From an archaeon (GTDB lineage Archaea > Nanobdellota > Nanobdellia > Pacearchaeales > GW2011-AR1): a stretch of DNA of 64,000 nucleotides. Each line of letters begins with the position of its first letter. The stretch's first letter is position 1. The translations under genes and the position numbers were made by a program. The stretch is taken from the NCBI GenBank assembly GCA_018697035.1, contig JABHSE010000004.1:259300-323299 (forward strand). The letters are read 5' to 3'. Shown one piece after another: positions 5,932 to 17,116 of the stretch. A model generated the notes under the pieces. That model saw only the letters and a list, made by a program, of their open reading frames with translations. It made no database searches and was not told where the DNA came from.

Positions 5932-6603
5932 CTAAATAATCTCAACAATATCCCCAACGTTCTTCTTCAAAGAATAAAGCATAGGTGGCCTATGCGAAAC
6001 ATTTTTCCTCAAACCTTCCTCTTTCAAAATACCAAGCGAAATAATCTTCTTAGAAAAATTCCTCTTATCAAAGCTCTTATTGAAAACCATTTCATAAATC
6101 TTCTGCACTTCACTTATCGCAAACTTTTTCGGAAGCAATGAAAAAGCAACAGTCGTATACTCAAACTTCCACTTCAGCCTCTTCAAAGAATATTCCAATA
6201 TTTCCTTATGATCAAAGGCAAGTGAAGGAACATCCTTGATAGAAAACCACTTAGCATCAGAAACATCAGTAGCAGCTTTCAATTCTATACCCTCAGAGTT
6301 AACAAGAGCCATATATGCAACAGTAACGACCCTTCCCCTAGGATCCCTTTTGGGTTCCCCGAAACTAAACAATTGTTCAAGATAAACATCTCGCACCCCA
6401 GCCTCTTCCTCTAATTCCCTTTTAGCCGCATCCTCCAAAGACTCATCAATTCTAACAAAACCACCAGGAAACGCCCAGCCACCCTTAAATGGACTGATAT
6501 TCCGCTTCACCAAAAGAACCTTCAACTCACCACCTTCAATAGTAAAAATAACTATATCTGCAGTCAACGACGGCTTCTCAAAATCATGTATACTTTCTTC
6601 CAT
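5932..6603 (-). CDS. nrtR: Nudix-related transcriptional regulator NrtR (Nudix domain plus C-terminal winged helix)
   Basis: Nudix box GGWAFPGGFVRIDESLEDAAKRELEEEAGV, followed by a ~90-aa C-terminal wHTH-like domain. The gene sits at the end of the NAD cluster. Confidence 0.75.
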   Translation of the reverse strand: MEESIHDFEKPSLTADIVIFTIEGGELKVLLVKRNISPFKGGWAFPGGFVRIDESLEDAAKRELEEEAGVRDVYLEQLFSFGEPKRDPRGRVVTVAYMALVNSEGIELKAATDVSDAKWFSIKDVPSLAFDHKEILEYSLKRLKWKFEYTTVAFSLLPKKFAISEVQKIYEMVFNKSFDKRNFSKKIISLGILKEEGLRKNVSHRPPMLYSLKKNVGDIVEII

Positions 6604-6638: not shown

Positions 6639-7418
6639 CTAAATACCCTCGATAGACTGCAACGGCTTATCAGACAATTTAACTTCGACAACATCTCCTC
6701 TGTTGAAATCATACGTCTTAAACCCTATTCCGATAATTCCACCATAATCTCGAGTAGATTCAAAAGAAATATTTTCATCAGATAAAATTTCACCCCTTAA
6801 AACTGTTGGAACGTAAATTCTTTTTCCAAGATATGTTTCTGTAATTACGAACCTAAGCTTTTTTTCATTTGCACCAAATTCGTCTCCGCCTATGGCATTA
6901 AACCAACCTGTAGAACCAGTACCCGTAGAAATAACAGCACCCGAACTTCTATGCTCTTCCCTTTTACCTCTATAATCAATGATATACCTAGAAGTATTCA
7001 ATCTCTTTTCGGCCCCAACATAAACTTCATTAGTAACAAGTTCATCCAAAACCTTATCATTCAATTTAACTTCCCCCCTCTGCCTCTCAATAACATTAAA
7101 TTTTCCACCCAGTATCTCTTCCAACTTTCCCCTCTCATTCATAGACAAACTCGCCAATGCCCCTTCACTAGAAGTCATGTCAGAATTTATTCCCAAAAGA
7201 TAAGAATCCCTTATTCGATTAGCAGCCTCTATATACGTACCATCACCACCAAGAGTTATTACCAAATCCGCACCGGAAAGCTTTTCCTTACTCAAATCAT
7301 CATACATAGTCCAACAAAAATCACGTCCACTCAAAACTTCTCTCAATCTCCGAGAACTTTCCAAGTGTTCGGAACTATCCTTATTACTTTCAACAACAAC
7401 AATCTTCTCAAACTCCAT
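6639..7418 (-). CDS. nadK: NAD kinase
   Basis: DLVITLGGDGT motif, the later TGSTGW motif, and typical length. Confidence 0.85.
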   Translation of the reverse strand: MEFEKIVVVESNKDSSEHLESSRRLREVLSGRDFCWTMYDDLSKEKLSGADLVITLGGDGTYIEAANRIRDSYLLGINSDMTSSEGALASLSMNERGKLEEILGGKFNVIERQRGEVKLNDKVLDELVTNEVYVGAEKRLNTSRYIIDYRGKREEHRSSGAVISTGTGSTGWFNAIGGDEFGANEKKLRFVITETYLGKRIYVPTVLRGEILSDENISFESTRDYGGIIGIGFKTYDFNRGDVVEVKLSDKPLQSIEGI

Positions 7419-8439
7419 TCTTCAACACTCCATCAACAAGATCTTTAACCTTCATAAATCTCTCGTTATAATTTCCAGCAACACTAACAAAATCAACACC
7501 GATACCTTCATACATATCCTTCAGCAACTTATTATTCTTCAATCTCTGCTCATCCGCACCAGCAAAACGCAACCCATCAGAAACCCACTTCACATCTGGC
7601 TCAAGAAATACTACCAAATCATAATTCTGCAATGCAGCAACCTCTTCAATCAACCTCGACTTATTCCCCGAAAAATACATGTCAAGATAATACTGAGTTA
7701 TAACAGCATCGCTGTCAACAAACAAAACCTTATCACTACTCCTAGCCTTCTTATCCTGCAAAATAAAATGCTCCATAGCAATTTTATCAAACATATCCAC
7801 AGTCAAAAGATTAGAATGCCTCTCACAATAATCCCTACCAATCTCATGAACATATTCAGTATTATAAAATTTAGCAAGCTTCTTACATAACGTCGTCTTC
7901 CCACAACTCTCAGTCCCAACAATTGCAACACTCTTAGTGAAATAAGGCTTAACACAATTAGGCAACTTATCCCAATTCCCGTAAAGATCTTTCCTTAATT
8001 CAGTCGCAGAAATCGTAACAGTTTTCCGCTTATCGTCCACAACGACATGTTTTGAATCAGGATAATATTTCTTAAACAATTCATCATATTCTGTTTCAGA
8101 ACTAAAAACATAATCAATCGGCTTGCCTATTTTTTCCTTAATCATATTAGCTCCTTCTTCCCAATCATAATCGTTATCCCAATGATCATCTTCAATATGA
8201 ATTATCTTTATATTATCTAAATCATTCAAAGACTCACCAATCCAGGAAAGCCTAACCTCAGCGGGAATATATTTCATTCCATCTTTTTCGCACAGCTCTC
8301 GATCCCGATTCTTAGAAGACGAAACAACAACATACAACTCATCAACATAATTAGAAGCAGCCATAATAACATACACATGACCCTGATGGAAGGGGAGAAA
8401 CTTCCCTCCTATAAATCCAACAGTTTTCCTACTTACCAC
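7408..8439 (-). CDS. nadR: NadR-type bifunctional NMN adenylyltransferase / ribosylnicotinamide kinase (no HTH domain)
   Basis: GGKFLPFHQGH nucleotidyltransferase motif plus a second P-loop GTESCGKTT. The start is probably the GTG at 8439, overlapping the pnuC stop by 11 nt. The track ORF extends to 8487. Confidence 0.8.
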   Translation of the reverse strand: MVSRKTVGFIGGKFLPFHQGHVYVIMAASNYVDELYVVVSSSKNRDRELCEKDGMKYIPAEVRLSWIGESLNDLDNIKIIHIEDDHWDNDYDWEEGANMIKEKIGKPIDYVFSSETEYDELFKKYYPDSKHVVVDDKRKTVTISATELRKDLYGNWDKLPNCVKPYFTKSVAIVGTESCGKTTLCKKLAKFYNTEYVHEIGRDYCERHSNLLTVDMFDKIAMEHFILQDKKARSSDKVLFVDSDAVITQYYLDMYFSGNKSRLIEEVAALQNYDLVVFLEPDVKWVSDGLRFAGADEQRLKNNKLLKDMYEGIGVDFVSVAGNYNERFMKVKDLVDGVLKNGV

Positions 8440-9127
8440 TATGCTTGCCCTCCAACTTTTTCCAGTTATAATAACCATACACCGCATTAACCAAAAACGC
8501 CGACCACATCACAAGTATACTAACATCTCCACCACTCGTAACGAAAATATAGGCCCACATCACGATAGAAAGCACGTTCACCATTATCCAGAAAAGCCAC
8601 TGCTCCGTCAATCTCTTATTCAGCATAATAGTAGCCACAATCGAAAAAACAGTCGTAGCCGAATCAATAAACGGCAAAGTCCCATTAATCACTTTCAACA
8701 CTAGCCCGTAAACAAGCAAAGCAATAATAGAACCTCCAAACCAAACAAGCCTATCTTTCCAACTCAAACTCTTCACAGCTATCTCGCTACCATTCCGCAT
8801 ATTCTTTTTCCAAAAATAGATACCAACAAAAGCCATCGGCAAGAAGTAAAGCATGTTCAACATAACATCTCCATAGTACCGACTCTGATACGCAACATAC
8901 GAATAGGCCAAAATATTAGCCAAGCCAAAATAAAAACTACTTATCCTCGCCTTCGCAGTCAAAACCACACACAACATCCCAGTCAAAGAAGCAGTCAATC
9001 CAATCCAACTATCTTGCCACGCAAAAAACAAATAAATATTAATCAACGTAAAAGACAAAAGCCAAACCTTTTCAAAAGTATTCCATTCTCCAATAAGACG
9101 AGCAATCTTATCTCTCAAGTCCCTCAT
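8429..9127 (-). CDS. pnuC: nicotinamide riboside transporter PnuC
   Basis: Seven-TM protein with a WQDSWIGL..LTAKARISSFYFGLANILAYSYVAY pattern typical of PnuC. Confidence 0.8.
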   Translation of the reverse strand: MRDLRDKIARLIGEWNTFEKVWLLSFTLINIYLFFAWQDSWIGLTASLTGMLCVVLTAKARISSFYFGLANILAYSYVAYQSRYYGDVMLNMLYFLPMAFVGIYFWKKNMRNGSEIAVKSLSWKDRLVWFGGSIIALLVYGLVLKVINGTLPFIDSATTVFSIVATIMLNKRLTEQWLFWIMVNVLSIVMWAYIFVTSGGDVSILVMWSAFLVNAVYGYYNWKKLEGKHSGK

Positions 9128-9549
9128 TTTACACCTCCCTTAAATTTAGTTATATAGTCCATCAATATCTTCTCATGATCAAAAGCCAACTCAGGCAAAT
9201 TGTCCATTGGAAAAAACCTCACATCCCTAGCATCATCCTTAGCCATAATCTCACCTCTAAAATTCCTAGCAACATAAGCACAAGTAACATAATGCCCCCT
9301 CGGATCTCTACCTGGTTCCGAATAAACTCCAATCAACTCCAAGTCAGAAACTTTCGCTCTCAGTCCCGTCTCTTCAAATAATTCCCTAACACCAGTCTCC
9401 TCAACTGTCTCATCACCATAATTAAGATGCCCGCCAGGAAAAGCCCACATATCCCTAAACGGCTCAATAGCTCTCTTTATCAAAAGCAACTCTTCCCTTC
9501 TTTCAATAATAATATCCGCAGTCACACAGGGGTTCAGATATTCACTCAT
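9124..9549 (-). CDS. Nudix hydrolase (ADP-ribose pyrophosphatase-like)
   Basis: Nudix box PGGHLNYGDETVEETGVRELFEETGL. The start is set at the internal ATG (MSEYLNP), which overlaps the nadD stop by 8 nt. Confidence 0.8.
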   Translation of the reverse strand: MSEYLNPCVTADIIIERREELLLIKRAIEPFRDMWAFPGGHLNYGDETVEETGVRELFEETGLRAKVSDLELIGVYSEPGRDPRGHYVTCAYVARNFRGEIMAKDDARDVRFFPMDNLPELAFDHEKILMDYITKFKGGVK

Positions 9550-10102
9550 GATAAAGTCCCTCCCTAAGTATATATTTCTCAACATCCTCATGAACCAATT
9601 CATAAATAGGCTTATCCGCAGCGACCCTTTCCCTTATCTCAGTAGAAGACGTCCCCAAAAGAGGCTTCTCATAAAATGTCATATCCCGAGAATCTTCCCT
9701 CACAGAATATCCCTTCCTCTCAAAAACCAAGAAATCAATCAACTCTCTTAATTTCGCACCATCTTTCCAACTAGGCAAATCAGACACAGCATCAGAACCC
9801 GCCATAAAATAAAAATCATGATCATATTTACTTTTCAACTTCCGAACAGTATCGATAGTATAATTAACACCCTCAGAATCCAATTCAGTACTATCAACCC
9901 TAACATGATCCATCCCCTTAATCGCATATTCAATCATCTTAACTCTATGCTTCGAATCCGAAAGATTTTTACCAAAAGCATGTCTCTTACACGGAATCAC
10001 CCAAACCTCATCTACAACCTTAGACTCCAGAGCATCACCAATAATCTTAGTATGAAAATTATGTATAGGATCAAAACTACCTCCAAAAATTCCCACCTTC
10101 AT
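9542..10102 (-). CDS. nadD: nicotinate/nicotinamide mononucleotide adenylyltransferase, NadD type
   Basis: GIFGGSFDPIHNFH (GxFxPxHxxH) motif, ~186 aa. Confidence 0.85.
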   Translation of the reverse strand: MKVGIFGGSFDPIHNFHTKIIGDALESKVVDEVWVIPCKRHAFGKNLSDSKHRVKMIEYAIKGMDHVRVDSTELDSEGVNYTIDTVRKLKSKYDHDFYFMAGSDAVSDLPSWKDGAKLRELIDFLVFERKGYSVREDSRDMTFYEKPLLGTSSTEIRERVAADKPIYELVHEDVEKYILREGLYHE

Positions 10103-10923
10103 TCTCGCACCCCATACAATAAACTAACTTTTCCGACCGAAGGAACCTTCCGCTTATGCTCTGTATTAGCATGCCTCATCACAACATCAGAAATGATTCT
10201 ATTATCAAATCCCGTAATCTCTTCGATTTGCGAAGCACTATATCCCTGATCAAAACCATTCTGAATCAACTCCGCCGCATCATAAGTATACCCAAGTTCA
10301 CCTTCATCAGTCTGACCTTCCCACAAGCCAGCAGTCGGAACCCTATTAACAAGATCTTCAGAAACACCCAAGTGCGCCGCAAGTTCCCGAACCAACCTCT
10401 TCGGAAGATTACCCAAAATATTATTATCCACCGCCGCATCCCCCCGCTTAGTACAATACCCCAAAACATAATCCTCGTCCCAGTTCCCAGTTCCCATAAC
10501 CCTATAATTCTTAGAAGCAGCAACCCTGCTCAAAACTACCGCTCTCAACTCAGAATATAAATTACCCCTATGAAACTCACTATCAATACCAGGAACTTGA
10601 CGAGCGAATATATCAGCAATAGGTTCAATCGGAACAACCACAGATTCAATTCCAAGATTCTTAGCAACTCTCAAACCATCCTCCTTATCTTCGTCACGAT
10701 TCGCATCCGATGGCATCACAATACCATAAAGTCCAAGTCCACTGCCCTCACGACCAAAAGCATAATCACACAAATAAGCAGTCGCAGTAGAATCAATACC
10801 ACCACTCAAACCAATAACACCACCATAAGCACCAGTCCCCTTAGTAAGCCGAATCACTTCATCCGCCAACTCATCAACAGCCCGCTCAACTCCATTTGCA
10901 AAATATGCCCGCTCTATTTTCAT
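10099..10923 (-). CDS. nadE: NH3-dependent NAD+ synthetase
   Basis: PP-loop GLSGGIDST. The ATG at 10923 overlaps the upstream stop as ATGA. Confidence 0.85.
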   Translation of the reverse strand: MKIERAYFANGVERAVDELADEVIRLTKGTGAYGGVIGLSGGIDSTATAYLCDYAFGREGSGLGLYGIVMPSDANRDEDKEDGLRVAKNLGIESVVVPIEPIADIFARQVPGIDSEFHRGNLYSELRAVVLSRVAASKNYRVMGTGNWDEDYVLGYCTKRGDAAVDNNILGNLPKRLVRELAAHLGVSEDLVNRVPTAGLWEGQTDEGELGYTYDAAELIQNGFDQGYSASQIEEITGFDNRIISDVVMRHANTEHKRKVPSVGKVSLLYGVRE

Positions 10924-11834
10924 TTTTCCTCCTCCAATAAATAGGGCGTTAAACAAAGCCTACAAAATTTATCTCCCCGCATAAACCCTTCAATCTTATC
11001 ACTAGTATTCGCAAGCAAAAAAACATCACTCACCTTCAAATTCAAACCATGATCCTCATTTATCTCACTAATTATTTTCTCCTGCATCAATTTATACTTA
11101 TCGTACAACTGCCTAGGCCTAATCCTATCAAGAACCCTATCAGTCACAACCAATGAAAAAATATTCTTAAACCACTTATTAGCAACTAACGTCTCAAGCG
11201 GCTTCCGAGTAAAAGTAAAACCCGATCTCAAATAATACATCCCAAAGGGTTTACTCATAGATGCAACAACCGCTACAATATTATCATTACTAACATCAAT
11301 CTCATACAATTCAGTCATCCCCAAATACGCCAAATCATAAACAACCTTATGACTCTCACAAATATCAGTAACAACCTCATTCCTTATCACATTACCATCA
11401 CGCCCAGAAGGATTCGATATAAAAAAATACCCTGGCTTCAACTTCGAAAAATCCTCATCTTCAGAAACCTCAACAATAGTAATACCAAGCCGACTAGCAT
11501 ATTCCTGATATCCCTCATACTCGCCCTCAAAAACATAAATCACCTCATCCGCATTCTTAGCCTTAATCTCAGCAAGCAAATGAAAAATCCCTTGCCGCGA
11601 CCCATCCGTAGAATATCTATATCCAAAATCTTTCAAAGCAGGGACATCCTCAGAATAATACTTCACAAACTTCTCAATAATCGGCTTATCAAAATCATCA
11701 AGACCCGGACTAATCGAACTCAAAAAAACATCATGTGGAAAATTCTCACAAACCTCGTCGATAACTTCCCGAACTTCAGGAAAATAATAACAATATACTC
11801 CCCGAATAGCTTTCATCTCATCCATATTCTTCAT
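10920..11834 (-). CDS. PLP-dependent aminotransferase-fold protein (class I/II-like), function unknown
   Basis: NPSGRDG (NPxNPTG-like) and the SMSKPFG lysine motif. Short for the family at 304 aa. Confidence 0.45.
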   Translation of the reverse strand: MKNMDEMKAIRGVYCYYFPEVREVIDEVCENFPHDVFLSSISPGLDDFDKPIIEKFVKYYSEDVPALKDFGYRYSTDGSRQGIFHLLAEIKAKNADEVIYVFEGEYEGYQEYASRLGITIVEVSEDEDFSKLKPGYFFISNPSGRDGNVIRNEVVTDICESHKVVYDLAYLGMTELYEIDVSNDNIVAVVASMSKPFGMYYLRSGFTFTRKPLETLVANKWFKNIFSLVVTDRVLDRIRPRQLYDKYKLMQEKIISEINEDHGLNLKVSDVFLLANTSDKIEGFMRGDKFCRLCLTPYLLEEEK

Positions 11835-12697
11835 ATCAAAATCGCTCCCTTATACTGCCAATCATATCTCAAATGTCCATCCGGAAAGAAAATAACCTGC
11901 CTCATATTATCCCTCTCCGGCTCAATGGTCAAAGCACTTGTCAAGCAAACATTCTGACCCTCCAAATCATAAACGGTCGCACCATGAGCAAGCGCCAACA
12001 GCTGATTACCATTTTCCTTAACAAACAGTTCAATCTCAGAATAATTTTCATCACCAATCATATTCTCCATAGTCCAATCGTAAACACTCTTACACTCAGA
12101 ACCCTGCGGAGCTGCCAACTTCCTAAGACTCAACTGCTCAACCCCCCACCCCTTAACTTTCTTAATCAAAGCCAAAGCCTCATCCTTACTGTCAACAAAA
12201 CCCTTAACCAAAGTGCAACTAATCCTAACGGTATACCCGATATCATGCAACTTAGCAATCAACTTTTCCAAATCAAAATACTCACCCTCTGGAGTAAAAA
12301 TCAACTTATTCTTATCTCTCTCATAATGGACAATAGAAATAGCAATCGTAGTCAATCCAAGATCATACCACTTCTTCAAATACTCATCACAATCATCCCC
12401 CGCGAGAACAATACCATTCGTCTGAATCTCAATAAAAGGAAACTCAAATCTTTCCAACTTATTCAAAAACTCACTAATTTGTTCAGGAAAAAGGGTGGGC
12501 TCACCCTTACCAGTTATAAGAACAGTACTAACATCATTCATTTTAGAAAAATTACAAGCCTTCTCAAAGTTCCTCCAATTAACAACCGGCTCTTCCAAAC
12601 CAATACCCTGCTTCGGAGTCATCCGCGAAACACAATAGGGACATCTAGCGTTACAAGCCGAACTCCCAGCAACAATCGTCAATGTTTGAATCTTCAT
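11831..12697 (-). CDS. radical SAM enzyme, function unknown
   Basis: CNARCPYC (CxxxCxxC) cluster near the N-terminus, then GKGEPTL and IQTNG motifs. Confidence 0.75.
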   Translation of the reverse strand: MKIQTLTIVAGSSACNARCPYCVSRMTPKQGIGLEEPVVNWRNFEKACNFSKMNDVSTVLITGKGEPTLFPEQISEFLNKLERFEFPFIEIQTNGIVLAGDDCDEYLKKWYDLGLTTIAISIVHYERDKNKLIFTPEGEYFDLEKLIAKLHDIGYTVRISCTLVKGFVDSKDEALALIKKVKGWGVEQLSLRKLAAPQGSECKSVYDWTMENMIGDENYSEIELFVKENGNQLLALAHGATVYDLEGQNVCLTSALTIEPERDNMRQVIFFPDGHLRYDWQYKGAILI

Positions 12698-13350
12698 ACC
12701 CTCCCCTCCAAAACATCTTTAGTCGTCACAAAGTTAACCCCAGCCTCTTCCCAATTTTTCAAAACCACTTTAGTCTCCAAAGGCGTACCAACCAAATGCG
12801 GCAAGTCCCTCATAGCATCCATAACCGCATAAACATTTCGCCCTTTCTTGACATTACCCATCACCGCAAAATTATCACAAACATTCAAGGCAACACCATA
12901 GAGCACAACATTCTCAGGATTCAAAATATCAATAGCCTCCGAAGTCAAAGAATTCCCGCTAAAAACATCAAACTCATATTTCTCAATAACAAGATTCCGA
13001 GCCTTCACTATCTTCTCAGCATCGACATTTTGAGCATCCCGAGTCAACCTATAAATATTATCCATAGGACGAGTCGCAGGAATATACTCAGCACCTTTAG
13101 TCCCAGCCATACAATGAGGAAAATATGTATCCACAAGATCCGGGTTCTCAGCATCAATCTCCTTATCCTCCAACCTATGCCAGTCCGCACTATTAACAAC
13201 ATAAATCCCATTCTGCTTGGCATACCCAGTCAACTTAGCTAAATTACCCTCTATCTCTCGAGCATCAGGCACAGGCAAAGTACCCCTAAAACTTTCGTCA
13301 TCTCGCATAAAATCATACTGAGTATCAACATTCCAAAAAATAGTTCTCAT
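12694..13350 (-). CDS. pncA: nicotinamidase (isochorismatase family)
   Basis: N-terminal VDTQYDF, the FPHCMAGTKGAE metal site, and the GVALNVC catalytic Cys. Confidence 0.8.
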   Translation of the reverse strand: MRTIFWNVDTQYDFMRDDESFRGTLPVPDAREIEGNLAKLTGYAKQNGIYVVNSADWHRLEDKEIDAENPDLVDTYFPHCMAGTKGAEYIPATRPMDNIYRLTRDAQNVDAEKIVKARNLVIEKYEFDVFSGNSLTSEAIDILNPENVVLYGVALNVCDNFAVMGNVKKGRNVYAVMDAMRDLPHLVGTPLETKVVLKNWEEAGVNFVTTKDVLEGRV

Positions 13351-14598
13351 CTAATACACGCACTCCTCCATAGCATATTTAGCATCATCATAATCGAATA
13401 TATCCTTAAATCTAGCAACATCTTCAAGACTACCCATAGTCTTAGCCGGATTGTCACTCAACTTAACAGTCCCATACCCATTAGATTCAACAGCCTTCAT
13501 AACAAGCGAAAGAGGCCTCAGTCCCAAGTCATTAGTAAGATTAGTCCCCCAACCAGCGACAACATTTATCCTATTCCCAAACTCATTCTGCAAGTCAGCA
13601 ATCTTCTCCACATTAAGCCCGTCACTCGGAACAAACAACTTAGTCTTCGGATCAATCCTATTTTTTTCATAAAACCCAATCTGCCTTCTAGCAAAAGCCG
13701 CAGGGTCCCCCGAATCTTGCCGAAGCCCCTTCCAATTACGAGCCTGCTCATAGCTCATATCGTCAAGAAAAAAATCAGATCCATAAGTATCAGTCAAAGC
13801 AATAGACAACCCAACCCCATACTCATCAAACCATTCCTCCAAAAACCTATTATGAGAAGCCTTTATGTCAAGATCACTATCATGATAAATCCCAGACATA
13901 ACCATATCCATCTCATGAGCATTCGTACCCATTGGCTCAAGCCCAAGCTTCATCGCCAAATAAACATTCGACGTACCGACAATTTGATTCGGAACTCTCG
14001 CCTTCAACTTTGAAACAACACCCTCTTGCCACTCCTGATCAAACCTCCGCCTAGTCCCAAATTCCATGAACCTCACATTAGGATTCTCCTCCAAAGTCTC
14101 AATCTTCCTTTCAAGATTATTAGCACCTTTTTCCATAATAACCCGAAGCTGATCAGAATCCATGTTCTGCATAAGACCACGATAATAAAGAGTATTAAAA
14201 GTCGCAAGAGCAGGCGTCTCCCAATATATCCCAGCTCCCCAAGGCCCATCAACTTCAAAATCAAATTCGCCATTCTTCACGGTCAAATTATAATCAGGAA
14301 GCACAATATTCTCTAAGAATCCAAGATAGTCATCCTTAAACAATTGTTCGCCATTATTTTTTAATCCCGCCAAATATGTTAACTCGTTACTAGTAGGCCT
14401 CGTATACTGAATCCTATCCAACTCCTGCCTCAACTTCCCTTCATCAACAACCGCCGGAAGACTAACATCCTTCGTCCTATTTTTGAACGCATACTTAACC
14501 GAAACATCATTATACCTATGAAAAGCAAATTGCCCCATGGTCAACTTATACATATCGGTATCAAGAAACGACTCTGTTGTTCGTGTTGTGTTTACCAT
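13351..14598 (-). CDS. pncB: nicotinate phosphoribosyltransferase
   Basis: LDTDMYKLTMGQ motif. The start is set at the ATG at 14598, 21 nt downstream of CTTTATATA. The track ORF adds 7 codons. Confidence 0.85.
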   Translation of the reverse strand: MVNTTRTTESFLDTDMYKLTMGQFAFHRYNDVSVKYAFKNRTKDVSLPAVVDEGKLRQELDRIQYTRPTSNELTYLAGLKNNGEQLFKDDYLGFLENIVLPDYNLTVKNGEFDFEVDGPWGAGIYWETPALATFNTLYYRGLMQNMDSDQLRVIMEKGANNLERKIETLEENPNVRFMEFGTRRRFDQEWQEGVVSKLKARVPNQIVGTSNVYLAMKLGLEPMGTNAHEMDMVMSGIYHDSDLDIKASHNRFLEEWFDEYGVGLSIALTDTYGSDFFLDDMSYEQARNWKGLRQDSGDPAAFARRQIGFYEKNRIDPKTKLFVPSDGLNVEKIADLQNEFGNRINVVAGWGTNLTNDLGLRPLSLVMKAVESNGYGTVKLSDNPAKTMGSLEDVARFKDIFDYDDAKYAMEECVY

Positions 14599-14602
14599 AA
14601 CA

Positions 14603-14621
14603 TAGTGTATAATATACACTA
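14603..14621. promoter_or_regulatory. perfect 9-1-9 palindrome TAGTGTATA-A-TATACACTA between the TATA box and the pncB ATG; candidate NrtR operator
   Basis: Read directly from the sequence. It lies between the TATA box (14621-14629) and the ATG (14598). Confidence 0.5.
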
Positions 14622-14723
14622 TATAAAGATTATGGCGATTGAGTATATGTATTATTTACACTAAGTATCATAAAAATCCAACAAATACAAACCCATAAAT
14701 ACCAATAAATTCAAAGAACAACA

Positions 14724-15449
14724 ATGGAATACAAAGCATACTCCTTCGATCTAGACGACAATCTCTTAAAACTCCCGACCCTAATTTACCTGGAAAATAA
14801 AGATAAAGAACAAGTAAAACTATCCACTCTGGAATTTGAAAAAATAAGACCAAATTTGAAAAAACTAAATCTGAAAATCACAACAGAATCTTTCAAAGAT
14901 TTCTGCGAAGACTCCCAATTCCTAATCGACATCAACAAAGCCACAAAAGCAGGAAGCTGGGGAAACTTAGTAAACTGTATAGTTCATCACGCAAGTATCT
15001 TCGCAATAATAACAGCAAGGGGACACAGCCCTGAAGCAATAAAAAAGGGGATAAAGTTGACAATAGAAAAATATATACCGAAATCACAATTAAAAAAATT
15101 CAGCGAAACATTCTCAATGAAGTACAACTTACAATTAGAAGACAAATCTCGAGAAGAAATACTAGACATCTACCTAGATCTATGCAAGTTTTATCCAGTA
15201 AATAACAAAAATATTAAAGAAAAACTAAAAGCCGAAGATGTAGGAGAACTAAAATCTTTAGCATTCGAAGACTTCCAAAACTATATAACAAAATACGTAA
15301 AAGAAAAGTTTGGAGAAGAAACAAAAGTAAAAATTGGATTCTCAGACGATTCTATCTTCCATCTCAACAAAATGGTTAATAATATTCTAAAAAAACATGG
15401 GCTATTCTTCTATCAAACAAACGACGAAGGAAAAAACAACTTTATCTAA
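14724..15449 (+). CDS. hypothetical protein, possibly a HAD-like phosphatase
   Basis: N-terminal FDLDDNLL (DxD) and IITARGHS resemble HAD motifs I/II. Weak call. Divergent from pncB. Confidence 0.35.
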   Translation: MEYKAYSFDLDDNLLKLPTLIYLENKDKEQVKLSTLEFEKIRPNLKKLNLKITTESFKDFCEDSQFLIDINKATKAGSWGNLVNCIVHHASIFAIITARGHSPEAIKKGIKLTIEKYIPKSQLKKFSETFSMKYNLQLEDKSREEILDIYLDLCKFYPVNNKNIKEKLKAEDVGELKSLAFEDFQNYITKYVKEKFGEETKVKIGFSDDSIFHLNKMVNNILKKHGLFFYQTNDEGKNNFI

Positions 15450-15612: not shown

Positions 15613-16182
15613 TTATAAGGAAGATATATCCCACCCAGAATTAACAAGGTGCTTAAACCAGTGTTTTTGGTGGAATTCTGGAAGTCCAACCAAATCAATC
15701 AACACAACAGAAATATTATTAGAGATGTAATCAAAACTTCCAGAAAACTTTAAATTAATCTTCCCATTATTATCTCTAATAACGTTCATTGTACCTCTTT
15801 CAAGAATAAATTCTCCAGAATTTTCTCGAGAAAGGTAATAATCGAGAACCTCTTTTTTAAAATGGAACCTTTGGAGATTATTACAAACATCATCTCCATT
15901 TTTTGACCACAAATCTGTAAATGGACCTTTTGGTCTTCCAGTTTTATCGGATTCTTTTCTTTCCAGTTTTTTTCTTATGGCCCTTTTTTTATTTTCTGTA
16001 TGGGTCTTTACCGCATGACAAATTGCACATAAGGCTTGTATATTATCTGGATCATTAGTTCCTCCATCCCATTTAGGCAAAATATGGTCAAAATGAGTTA
16101 TTTTGGGAGTCAATTCTCTTGGACAATCTGCACATTTATTATTTTGTCTTTCTAATATCTTATTTTTTGGTATTCCTGCCAT
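15613..16182 (-). CDS. HNH endonuclease
   Basis: CADCPRE..HFDHILPKWDGGTNDPDNIQALCAICH is an HNH motif. The ATG at 16182 lies 19 nt after TTTTTAAGG. Confidence 0.75.
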   Translation of the reverse strand: MAGIPKNKILERQNNKCADCPRELTPKITHFDHILPKWDGGTNDPDNIQALCAICHAVKTHTENKKRAIRKKLERKESDKTGRPKGPFTDLWSKNGDDVCNNLQRFHFKKEVLDYYLSRENSGEFILERGTMNVIRDNNGKINLKFSGSFDYISNNISVVLIDLVGLPEFHQKHWFKHLVNSGWDISSL

Positions 16183-16211
16183 AAAAAACCAGCGAATCAA
16201 ACCTTAAAAAT

Positions 16212-16853
16212 TTATCCCCAGGACTTTCCCCATTTCATCGGAGTTCCCATAGGTGTTTTGGGTTCAGAGAGATTCCTAACCATTTCATCAATATCTCCCT
16301 CTATCTCTGCCTGTTTCTTTTCTTCTTCAACATCAAAATCATCTCTTTCATCTTCTATATCATCATTACATTTCCAGCAAACACCTTCGAAATTATATTT
16401 ACTCGGACGAAACCATTTTTTCTTGCATCTAGGACATAAATTTCTACGATATTTTGATTTCACAAAATGGCATCTAAAGCATAAGGTCTGAACAAAATCA
16501 AAAGCATAATAATCTTTTAGTGCTAATTCTTTCGTCTTCTCTTTGAGTTCAGGATGATCTCGCATATAAGCCCCAAGTTTCCCAACCTTAATATAACCTT
16601 TAGAGGTAGAAAAACCTCCGCTCTTAGTTAATGCGCAAGGAGGGAATGTGAAATTCATTTCCTCGGACATAGAAATAATTGAAACTTTTCTAAAATTACG
16701 AAGCATATAGGCTTTAAAGGATATTTTATGGTGAGGCGTTAACTTATTTGTAGAACCGCACCATTCACACCTATCTTTTATCTTTCCATCTTCTAGCGCT
16801 AACTTTTTTGCCTCTTGGAATTCTTTTGTTTCCCACGGCTTTCTCTCCGTCAT
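16212..16853 (-). CDS. HNH-like zinc-finger nuclease domain protein
   Basis: CEWCGS..LTPHHK and CFRCH, plus extra CxxC pairs and an acidic tail. Its promoter is paralogous to that of 15613-16182. Confidence 0.6.
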   Translation of the reverse strand: MTERKPWETKEFQEAKKLALEDGKIKDRCEWCGSTNKLTPHHKISFKAYMLRNFRKVSIISMSEEMNFTFPPCALTKSGGFSTSKGYIKVGKLGAYMRDHPELKEKTKELALKDYYAFDFVQTLCFRCHFVKSKYRRNLCPRCKKKWFRPSKYNFEGVCWKCNDDIEDERDDFDVEEEKKQAEIEGDIDEMVRNLSEPKTPMGTPMKWGKSWG

Positions 16854-16953
16854 AAAAAATCCACTCAATCAATCCTTAAATATCTGCTGAATCCCGCTAA
16901 AAAATTATTAAAGAGTTTTATTTCTCTCCCACCCTATGTCGTGGGCAAGCGAA

Positions 16954-16995: not shown

Positions 16996-16999
16996 TTAA

Positions 17000-17070
17000 T
17001 CCCCCCACCCTGAATCGAACAGGGCCACAGCGGGCTACAACCGCCTGCTCTACCGATGAGCTATAGGGGG
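17000..17070 (-). tRNA. tRNA-Tyr: tRNA-Tyr (anticodon GTA)
   Basis: Hand fold: acceptor CCCCCTA/TGGGGGG with C1-G72, D arm GCTC-ATCGGTA-GAGC, anticodon arm GGCGG-TTGTAGC-CCGCT, T arm CCCTG-TTCGATT-CAGGG. No encoded CCA. TATA box ~25 nt upstream. Confidence 0.85.
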
Positions 17071-17116
17071 ACAAAAACAAAACTCTGAATAGCTTTATAA
17101 ATTTTTAGATAAGATG

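Follow-up and report, generated by a model that had tools for sequence, protein, structure and literature searches.

A radical SAM enzyme gene and its accessory PLP-enzyme partner in an archaeal NAD operon with a predicted NrtR-type operator

Why should an operon for nicotinamide adenine dinucleotide (NAD) metabolism contain genes for a radical S-adenosylmethionine (SAM) enzyme and a pyridoxal phosphate (PLP) enzyme? The question is raised by a 64,000-nucleotide stretch of DNA, hereafter the window, from an archaeon of the Pacearchaeales lineage GW2011-AR1 (GenBank assembly GCA_018697035.1, contig JABHSE010000004.1, positions 259,300 to 323,299). Few parts of biochemistry are charted as well as NAD metabolism, and we know of no textbook route that uses a radical SAM enzyme. 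The two genes, here called rSAM and the PLP gene, form a translationally coupled module within an 11-gene NAD operon that carries a predicted NrtR-type operator, and NAD gene neighbourhoods include the rSAM family as a conserved component. In our judgement it is somewhat probable that the rSAM protein, alone or with its PLP partner, is an unrecognised oxygen-independent enzyme of NAD(P) biosynthesis, recycling or repair, which would be controlled by NrtR and horizontally shared by DPANN archaea, bacteria of the candidate phyla radiation (CPR), other phyla and, as an auxiliary gene, huge phages.

The coupled genes and the predicted NrtR operator

The rSAM gene (11831-12697, minus strand) encodes a protein of 288 amino acids (aa) with the motif CNARCPYC, and the PLP gene (10920-11834, minus strand) a fold-type-I enzyme of 304 aa. 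The initial annotation had stated that both genes overlap their neighbours by 4 nucleotides (nt) and are embedded in the operon rather than merely adjacent to it. Each of the three junctions indeed reads ATGA (pncA stop/rSAM start at 12694-12697, rSAM stop/PLP start at 11831-11834, PLP stop/nadE ATG at 10920-10923), and Pfam and NCBIfam identified the flanking genes as NAD genes, which confirms both statements. For nadE, a TTG at 10956 precedes the ATG at 10923, the latter being the coupled start. Database names for the two proteins are generic only, including those of the identical deposited entries MBT6690551.1 ('radical SAM protein [archaeon]') and MBT6690550.1 ('aminotransferase class I/II-fold...'). 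Close homologues carry the labels Pacearchaeota, Woesearchaeota or Nanoarchaeota, which makes the source of the window a DPANN archaeon.

To survey the family, one genome per GTDB species was scanned, which yielded 224 rSAM relatives, and the best 80 loci were analysed. The coupling of rSAM and PLP genes is not due to chance. In 47 of 75 evaluable pairs from other genomes the two genes overlap by 4 nt, and 63 of the 75 are spaced within -20 to +10 nt. Where the PLP protein is present, its gene almost always adjoins rSAM, although not in a fixed order: among metagenome PLP loci with room upstream, rSAM lies immediately upstream in 42 of 57, and the inverted order was seen in at least eight other metagenome loci, for example as NadA-PLP-rSAM-NrtR and PLP-rSAM-rSAM-nadC-nadA-nadB. 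One protein of 666 aa (P0337) is a head-to-tail rSAM-PLP fusion with 37% identity to each of the window proteins; no other kind of domain fusion was found among the best 150 representatives. Since the PLP protein almost always adjoins rSAM and is once fused to it, the two proteins most probably form a complex or catalyse successive steps.

The pair had originally been regarded as a unit, and this holds only in part: rSAM is the conserved core, while the PLP gene is an optional partner found at 34 of the 80 species-representative loci (about 40%). Thus, a module with rSAM as its core and the PLP enzyme as a physically coupled accessory is firmly supported. The PLP-linked rSAM proteins fall into two clades, which mix DPANN archaea with CPR or other bacteria, and the PLP-less ones into other clades. 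A comparison of both groups revealed no specificity-determining positions. As no position separates them, the rSAM reaction is probably the same in both groups and the PLP step an add-on. A search of the PLP-less genomes for a gene that replaces the PLP partner found none. Further radical SAM genes accompany some pairs: a second rSAM paralogue directly follows the PLP gene in L035, L195, L196, L220 and L222, and two unrelated radical SAM genes flank the pair in L068 (8543-12551), downstream of two operator sites.

The strongest new evidence for a link to NAD is regulatory, namely a shared predicted NrtR-type operator. In the window, a perfect 19-bp palindrome, TAGTGTATA-T-TATACACTA, is located at 14603-14621 within a 21-bp site and ends 5 nt upstream of the pncB ATG; no match to it occurred in 100 shuffles of the window. 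A second operator is probable 42 nt further upstream (14644-14664); it is weaker, with two of the 12 core positions mismatched. NrtR operators are 21-bp palindromes with a GT-N7-AC core (PMC2330246), and the window palindrome fits them in both symmetry and core. With at most one mismatch allowed in the 12 core positions, the motif was found at 44 sites in the 80 loci compared with 4.25 expected. Nearly all of these sites are just upstream of a NAD gene and some are directly upstream of rSAM genes. In Collierbacteria and Woesebacteria, sites are placed 2-6 nt upstream of stand-alone rSAM-PLP pairs (operator-bearing stand-alone pairs include L052, L054, L055, L058, L059, L061, L063, L065 and L066). 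The operator also precedes such stand-alone pairs in L006, L007, L010, L011 and ten metagenome loci, and tandem sites occur in L021, L068, L217, L220 and L222.

The last gene of the window operon (5932-6603, minus strand) encodes an NrtR-like regulator with a Nudix and a winged-helix domain, which matches NF050029 with 182 bits over residues 6-212; homologues at other loci carry WHD_NrtR. Because the stand-alone Collierbacteria pairs share the operator of the NAD genes, they can be assigned to the same predicted ADP-ribose-responsive regulon. Membership of rSAM in a predicted NrtR regulon of DPANN archaea and CPR bacteria is firmly supported. The described NrtR regulons (Rodionov et al. 2008, PMC2330246) likewise combine a Nudix and winged helix-turn-helix regulator with a 21-bp GT-N7-AC operator, and there as here the operator stands upstream of genes of the pncB, pncA, nadA, nadE, nadK and pnuC types. 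The present regulon differs in its hosts, which are DPANN archaea and CPR bacteria, and in containing the rSAM(-PLP) module; the word 'radical' does not occur in the main text of PMC2330246.

At several of these loci in Collierbacteria and Woesebacteria (L006, L007 and L010, 5016-7010, minus strand; L059), a gene for an MttB-family methyltransferase and a small gene are divergent from the operator-bearing rSAM-PLP pair, and by this orientation both genes may share the regulation of the pair. Since relatives of MttB remove methyl groups from quaternary amines, one is reminded of trigonelline (N-methylnicotinate).

The NAD operon as a whole consists of 11 minus-strand genes whose ends overlap or nearly abut. 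It starts with pncB (13351-14598) for nicotinate phosphoribosyltransferase (NF003704, 406 bits; cut-off 379). An alternative pncB start, the GTG at 14619 (open reading frame (ORF) 13351-14619), falls within the operator and the ATG at 14598 is therefore taken as the likely start; the transcript is possibly leaderless. The next gene, pncA (12694-13350), encodes a nicotinamidase of the isochorismatase family (PF00857). Its match to the NCBIfam nicotinamidase model is weak, and by eye it carries VDTQYDF, DWH...HC and a catalytic Cys, which we take to resemble the catalytic and metal-binding motifs of nicotinamidases. Beyond rSAM and the PLP gene follow nadE for NH3-dependent NAD synthetase (10099-10923; PF02540, 186 bits), nadD for nicotinate-nucleotide adenylyltransferase (9542-10102; NF000840, 152.7 bits, cut-off 150), a gene for an ADP-ribose pyrophosphatase-like Nudix hydrolase (9124-9603), pnuC for the nicotinamide riboside transporter (8429-9127; PF04973, 165 bits), a nadR-like gene for a nicotinamide mononucleotide (NMN) adenylyltransferase/ribosylnicotinamide kinase (7408-8487; NF005988, 237.6 bits, cut-off 201) and a gene for a divergent NAD kinase-like protein (6639-7418; best match 44 bits, cut-offs about 260-490). 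No nadA, nadB or nadC gene was found in the window.

The region upstream of pncB (14599-14723) contains a TATA-like TTTATAT just before the first operator and is shared with a divergent ORF of 241 aa (14724-15449, plus strand) that has no PDB sequence match. Beside the operon, two adjoining ORFs (15613-16868), the first of which (15613-16200) has an HNH-nuclease motif, are located near a tRNA-Tyr gene (16999-17071) and may be the remnant of a mobile element. Throughout the window (1-64000), GC skew is strongly negative (-0.04 to -0.56), for genes on either strand, and AT skew is positive; the coding strands are G-rich and very C-poor, an unusually strong asymmetry.

Neighbourhood of rSAM in cellular genomes and phage-like contigs

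Conservation beside NAD genes in other genomes was the check on which the initial annotation had staked its proposal, and it turned out positive, above all for rSAM, which was found near pncA, pncB, nadE, nadD, nadK and nrtR in DPANN archaea, CPR bacteria, other phyla and phage-like contigs. For the 80 cellular loci, neighbour families were defined by all-against-all clustering of the ORFs within +/-5 kb, with no prior labels. Apart from the PLP partner, all recurrent cross-lineage families were NAD-related: Nudix/NrtR (47 of 80 loci), NadK-like (36), NadE/NadD (33), NAPRT (27), PncA (26), NadA (13), PnuC (9) and ADP-ribosylglycohydrolase (ARH; 7). At least one NAD gene was present at 53 of the 80 loci, in shuffled gene orders. 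Clearly, the link between rSAM and NAD genes is strongly non-random.

Among the hosts of rSAM are Obscuribacterales, Saccharibacteria, Planctomycetota, Acidobacteriota and Chloroflexota. The gene order is RNK-like, NMNAT-like, NadK-like, rSAM in Obscuribacterales, NAPRT-PncA-NadE-Nudix-NadD-rSAM and NAPRT-rSAM-PncA-NadE in two archaeal loci that lack the PLP gene, and NrtR-PnuC-NadR-rSAM-PLP-NadK-PncB-PncA in a patescibacterial locus with a PLP homologue. The phosphoribosyltransferases of the DPANN loci are NAPRT-like. A close relative of the window (L016) unites NAPRT, PncA, rSAM, PLP, NadE, Nudix, PnuC, NadR, NadA, NadC, NadB and ARH in one cluster, while at two loci in Collierbacteria the rSAM-PLP pair stands alone between ribosomal genes. 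Stand-alone pairs in Chloroflexota, Holophagae and Isosphaeraceae have heterogeneous neighbours, which in large genomes are genes for an amidohydrolase, a patatin, other radical SAM proteins and a sulfate permease.

The two genes had been connected with NAD salvage in particular. Salvage genes do adjoin them, but the genes are also found in nadA-nadC-nadB operons and next to nadK, which weakens an 'alternative route to quinolinate/nicotinate' as a simple gap-filler. Taken together, rSAM and PLP genes co-occur with nadA/nadC/nadB, with pncA/pncB/nadD/nadE, with pnuC/nadR and with nadK. As they accompany every type of NAD route, the module is no simple gap-filler of a single one.

Several neighbours deserve mention in their own right. 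NadK-like proteins are the most frequent specific neighbours of rSAM, and those examined (window 6639-7418; L025, 8974-9960; L073, 8844-10004) reach 44-63 bits against cut-offs of about 210-490; they may be something other than ordinary NAD kinases. At seven loci without nadB (L069, L087, L083, L051, L077, L230 and L249), a FAD oxidoreductase of about 460 aa resembling LhgO, Mqo or DAO is encoded next to nadA or elsewhere within the NAD cluster, in L087 with an NrtR-type site upstream of its gene. It is a candidate for a non-orthologous replacement of L-aspartate oxidase. In NAD clusters of Saccharibacteria and Sungbacteria (L057, 10954-12126; L078, 6738-7922; L087, 4410-5627), a gene product of about 390 aa contains a domain resembling nucleoside 2-deoxyribosyltransferase and may be a pyridine nucleotide glycosidase or base-exchange enzyme; the copy in L087 has a weak Nudix match below the Pfam threshold. 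In one lineage (L210-L212, e.g. L211, 3432-7819), a SufB/D gene for Fe-S assembly directly precedes NadA-PLP-rSAM.

In IMG/VR we found about 48 full-length relatives of rSAM with 30-52% identity, many of them on contigs of 100-460 kb. The family invariants described below are preserved in these relatives. Their most widespread recurrent neighbours, counted over 48 loci, are PncB (12), PncA (10), NadE (10) and NadD (6); PncB reaches 417-473 bits compared with a cut-off of 379, and PncA is of the isochorismatase type. The surroundings look phage-like: besides RtcB, ThyX, RNA ligase, tRNA nucleotidyltransferase and a sigma factor, they contain small ORFs densely packed in the same direction. These contigs are predicted to belong to huge phages, a status that rests on the IMG/VR predictions and on gene content. 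GenBank phages contained no rSAM homologue and BFVD no close one, and the NrtR-type motif was absent from 748 kb of viral loci. On one phage-like contig (L110), another radical SAM gene lies just upstream of rSAM.

Residues, folds and relatives of the two proteins

A word-indexed search returned 1380 relatives of the rSAM protein. The best 120 showed 52-100% identity and were almost all 284-317 aa long, with two truncated fragments of 237 and 261 aa. An exhaustive profile search at E <= 1e-30 gave 435 cluster representatives (50% identity). Archaeal and CPR members are about 50% identical, and the phylogeny of the family is dominated by horizontal transfer. The protein passes the gathering score of PF04055 (50.2 versus 29.5 bits), which places it in the radical SAM superfamily. 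The cysteines of its CX3CX2C motif for the SAM-binding [4Fe-4S] cluster (C15, C19 and C22) are invariant in 54 cellular and in 42 of 42 viral homologues. Further invariants are T27, W41, GKGEP, E90-Q92-N94, S121, N130, R158, Q248-N249, C251, R266, IFFPDGH and W280. Outside CX3CX2C only the cysteines C48 and C251 are conserved, which leaves no auxiliary cluster. The AlphaFold model (pLDDT 94) is a partial TIM barrel, and all top Foldseek matches are radical SAM enzymes; the best PDB matches are MoaA and viperin (TM 0.68-0.69, 12-18% identity), followed by NifB, SuiB and BlsE.

Neither protein of the module reached the curated cut-off of a characterised family, so the well-characterised unrelated pathway that would have argued against a role in NAD metabolism was not found. 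The rSAM protein has the N-terminal CX3CX2C core, the GxGEP SAM motif and the size of MoaA (GTP 3',8-cyclase) and viperin (CTP dehydratase), and MoaA is its best profile match (E 1e-6, PDB profile). It differs from MoaA by the lack of the C-terminal auxiliary-cluster cysteines and from both enzymes by the unique C-terminal signature GQNxC...R...IFFPDGH...W and by its context, which is NAD and not molybdopterin or defence. MoaA was rejected by score (TIGR02666/NF001199: 48.4 bits versus 284 and 32 versus 231) as well as by the missing cysteines, and viperin/pVip by score (NF038283: 28 bits versus 180; PADLOC pVip 3e-8) and by the NAD gene context. Curated cut-offs, the missing auxiliary cluster and context also ruled out NrdG, QueE and SPASM maturases.

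Homologues of the PLP protein, of which 150 were detectable, come from DPANN archaea and CPR bacteria. The protein exceeds the gathering score of Aminotran_1_2 (28.6 versus 19.7 bits) and is thus a fold-type-I enzyme. All PLP-binding residues (N141, D167, Y170, S192, K195 and R203) are kept in the alignment, in which K195 of SMSKPFG matches the Schiff-base lysine of Thermotoga maritima HisC. Motifs of the family are VYxYYFPExR at the N-terminus and RxCLTPY at the C-terminus; Cys294 is nearly invariant. T. maritima HisC and CobD are nearest in profile searches, and HisC and CobD are also the best Foldseek matches of the model (pLDDT 95), with C-S lyases among the further structural neighbours. 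The protein shares with HisC and CobD the fold and the PLP contacts (the SxSK lysine, Asp, Asn, Tyr and Arg), but it is shorter (about 300 aa), has terminal motifs of its own and never occurs in his or cob contexts. HisC was rejected by score (TIGR01141, 28.7 bits versus 276.55), and none of more than 160 loci contained his genes. CobD was likewise rejected (TIGR01140, 31.4 bits versus 290.55; no cob genes were seen nearby), and AspC by curated cut-offs and context. The module is predicted to be catalytically competent, which the conserved rSAM invariants and PLP residues firmly support.

Possible reactions of the module

What might such a module do in NAD metabolism? Identities of about 50% across domains and several conserved Arg, His and Lys residues lead us to infer a small, invariant and probably anionic metabolite as the rSAM substrate. 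According to the mechanism we tentatively propose, rSAM would act by hydrogen-atom abstraction on a small metabolite of NAD turnover that is anionic and phosphorylated; the likeliest candidates would be ADP-ribose, the effector of the regulon, or a pyridine (di)nucleotide. The product would be a keto, deoxy or otherwise rearranged compound, which the HisC/CobD-like partner could then transaminate or process in some other way. The role of the module would be an oxygen-free recycling or conversion of an NAD breakdown product or pathway intermediate, by which the NAD(P) pool would be refilled once ADP-ribose indicates that NAD is being consumed. Our tentative choice of substrate is a phosphorylated ribosyl compound from NAD turnover, either ADP-ribose or a pyridine nucleotide, to which three weak lines point: the effector of the regulon is ADP-ribose, the nearest folds (MoaA and viperin) act on nucleotides, and relatives of the partner handle carbonyl or amine groups beside a phospho-ester.

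A similar two-enzyme logic is known from DesII/DesI, BlsE/BlsH and BtrN with its aminotransferase, in which a radical enzyme with a keto-sugar intermediate is coupled to a fold-type-I aminotransferase. BlsE, from these sugar-nucleotide pathways of radical SAM enzyme and aminotransferase, is among the structural neighbours of rSAM. Those systems belong to secondary metabolism and have unrelated sequences, whereas the module described here stands in a regulon of primary metabolism, has an optional PLP partner and is not accompanied by sugar-nucleotide genes.

Several observations weigh against a role of rSAM in NAD(P) metabolism or against its proposed form. No known step of NAD metabolism is missing from the window operon, and thus the proposed conversion has no defined physiological product. 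At 12 of the 80 genomes rSAM has no NAD gene in range, and on about 30 phage-like contigs (L092-L139) none was found within +/-8 kb. Operator function and the response of NrtR to ADP-ribose are predictions from sequence. The likeness to MoaA and viperin is that of a generic partial TIM barrel and implies a nucleotide substrate only weakly, and the relatives of HisC and CobD include C-S lyases and enzymes for non-phosphorylated amino acids. Finally, the fusion protein P0337 is known from a single contig of 3.7 kb.

Radical SAM enzymes replace oxidases in anaerobes, as HemN does for HemF and ThiH for ThiO. By analogy, rSAM might be an oxygen-independent substitute for NadB, converting L-aspartate to iminoaspartate, with the PLP enzyme making aspartate from oxaloacetate and NadA continuing to quinolinate. 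Several rSAM contigs also encode NadA, and among 31 rSAM/PLP loci with NadA, 20 have neither NadB nor NadC in the fetched range. Compact NadA-PLP-rSAM-NrtR units (L201, L202 and L210-L212) and operator-PLP-rSAM-rSAM-nadC-nadA-nadB operons (L220 and L222) also fit such a role. However, eight of the 31 loci carry both NadB and NadC, NadB is present beside rSAM at nine, including the close relative L016, and relatives within the same clade vary in NadABC but all keep the pair. NadA is absent from most rSAM loci, from the window and from all phage modules. We therefore regard a NadB substitute as unlikely. Among the best 120 NadA matches, all of at least 54% identity, none was located on the source contig of the window. 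A general bypass of NadB, NadA and NadC was rejected, as all three co-occur with the module in L016, L030, L036, L178, L217 and L222 and NadA is lacking from the window and the phage modules.

We assign a similarly low probability to a supply of nicotinate or nicotinamide from another, scavenged pyridine (N-substituted, reduced or modified) that would feed the Preiss-Handler pathway. PncA/NAPRT/NadD/NadE is the most consistent enzymatic context in DPANN archaea and phage modules, NrtR control suits a role in making more precursor, the organisms are host-dependent scavengers, and the self-contained, operator-controlled pairs of Collierbacteria have the divergent MttB-family gene mentioned above. 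Yet the tie to NadK, NadR and NadABC clusters is no weaker, no transporter except PnuC co-occurs, a candidate substrate is lacking, and the need for radical chemistry is not obvious.

The independence of rSAM from the precursor route and its frequent position beside NadK (36 of 80 loci) would also suit the repair of damaged NAD(P)(H), be it by radical dehydration of NAD(P)HX or by cleaving NAD dimers or isomers much as spore-photoproduct lyase cleaves its substrate; in anaerobes, rSAM would then stand in for the usual repair enzymes. The protein has a single cluster and one extra conserved cysteine (C251), and comparably sized radical dehydratases are known (viperin and BlsE, both found by Foldseek). 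This explanation gives no role to the PLP partner and promises little benefit for phages, and the genes listed for NrtR regulons (PMC2330246) serve synthesis, salvage and transport and not repair, so that we consider it less likely still.

A pathway unrelated to NAD, such as a viperin-like antiviral activity or the modification of nucleosides or amino sugars, could have hitch-hiked with NAD genes by horizontal transfer. The phylogeny of rSAM, the heterogeneous neighbours of the stand-alone pairs in Chloroflexota, Holophagae and Isosphaeraceae and the weak pVip matches (PADLOC 3e-8) would agree with this. Nevertheless, the association with NAD genes persists across archaea, bacteria and phage-like contigs despite shuffled gene order, the shared operator is also found on physically isolated pairs, and the score is far below the viperin cut-off (28 versus 180), all of which makes hitch-hiking quite improbable. 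Least probable is a maturation system, with the PLP enzyme as a C-S lyase- or desulfurase-like sulfur donor and/or rSAM as a maturase or activase of an Fe-S or NAD-pathway protein. Such a system would suit an optional PLP partner beside an unchanged rSAM active site, the C-S lyases among the PLP structural neighbours, the nearly invariant Cys294 and the SufBD-NadA-PLP-rSAM arrangement of one lineage, but the closest PLP relatives are HisC and CobD and not NifS or SufS, no candidate target protein co-varies with rSAM, the identity of about 50% across domains suggests a fixed small-molecule substrate, and phage copies lack a partner.

An oxygen-independent enzyme of NAD(P) biosynthesis, recycling or repair remains a somewhat probable reading of rSAM. 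A large family, strong conservation, NAD operons and a shared operator together indicate a real but unassigned reaction. Among 8 million full texts, nothing relevant was found on radical SAM enzymes together with NrtR, NAD salvage, nicotinamidase, NaMN, NAD kinase or Patescibacteria. The radical SAM/PLP module of this NAD operon, with its predicted NrtR control, is unprecedented and has a fair chance of concealing a reaction new to NAD metabolism.

NAD supply is known to decide the outcome of phage-host conflict. Phages restore NAD through NARP1, NARP2 and NARP3, and NARP1 and NARP2 use ADPR-PP/Namat and Nampt/NMNAT, respectively. The IMG/VR contigs, which carry PncA-PncB-NadD-NadE by rSAM, resemble these systems in combining phage genes for NAD restoration. 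NARP3 consists of PnuC and NadR, and the paper describing it does not mention a radical SAM enzyme.

Members of the rSAM family concentrate in host-dependent archaea and bacteria of ultra-small size, the cofactor economy of which is little understood. The question is readily testable, the proteins being small and soluble-looking and the list of candidate substrates short. Once identified, the reaction could extend the pathways of NAD metabolism by a step or an anaerobic alternative, help to reconstruct the metabolism of DPANN archaea and CPR bacteria more accurately, and reveal a new strategy by which phages keep NAD available.

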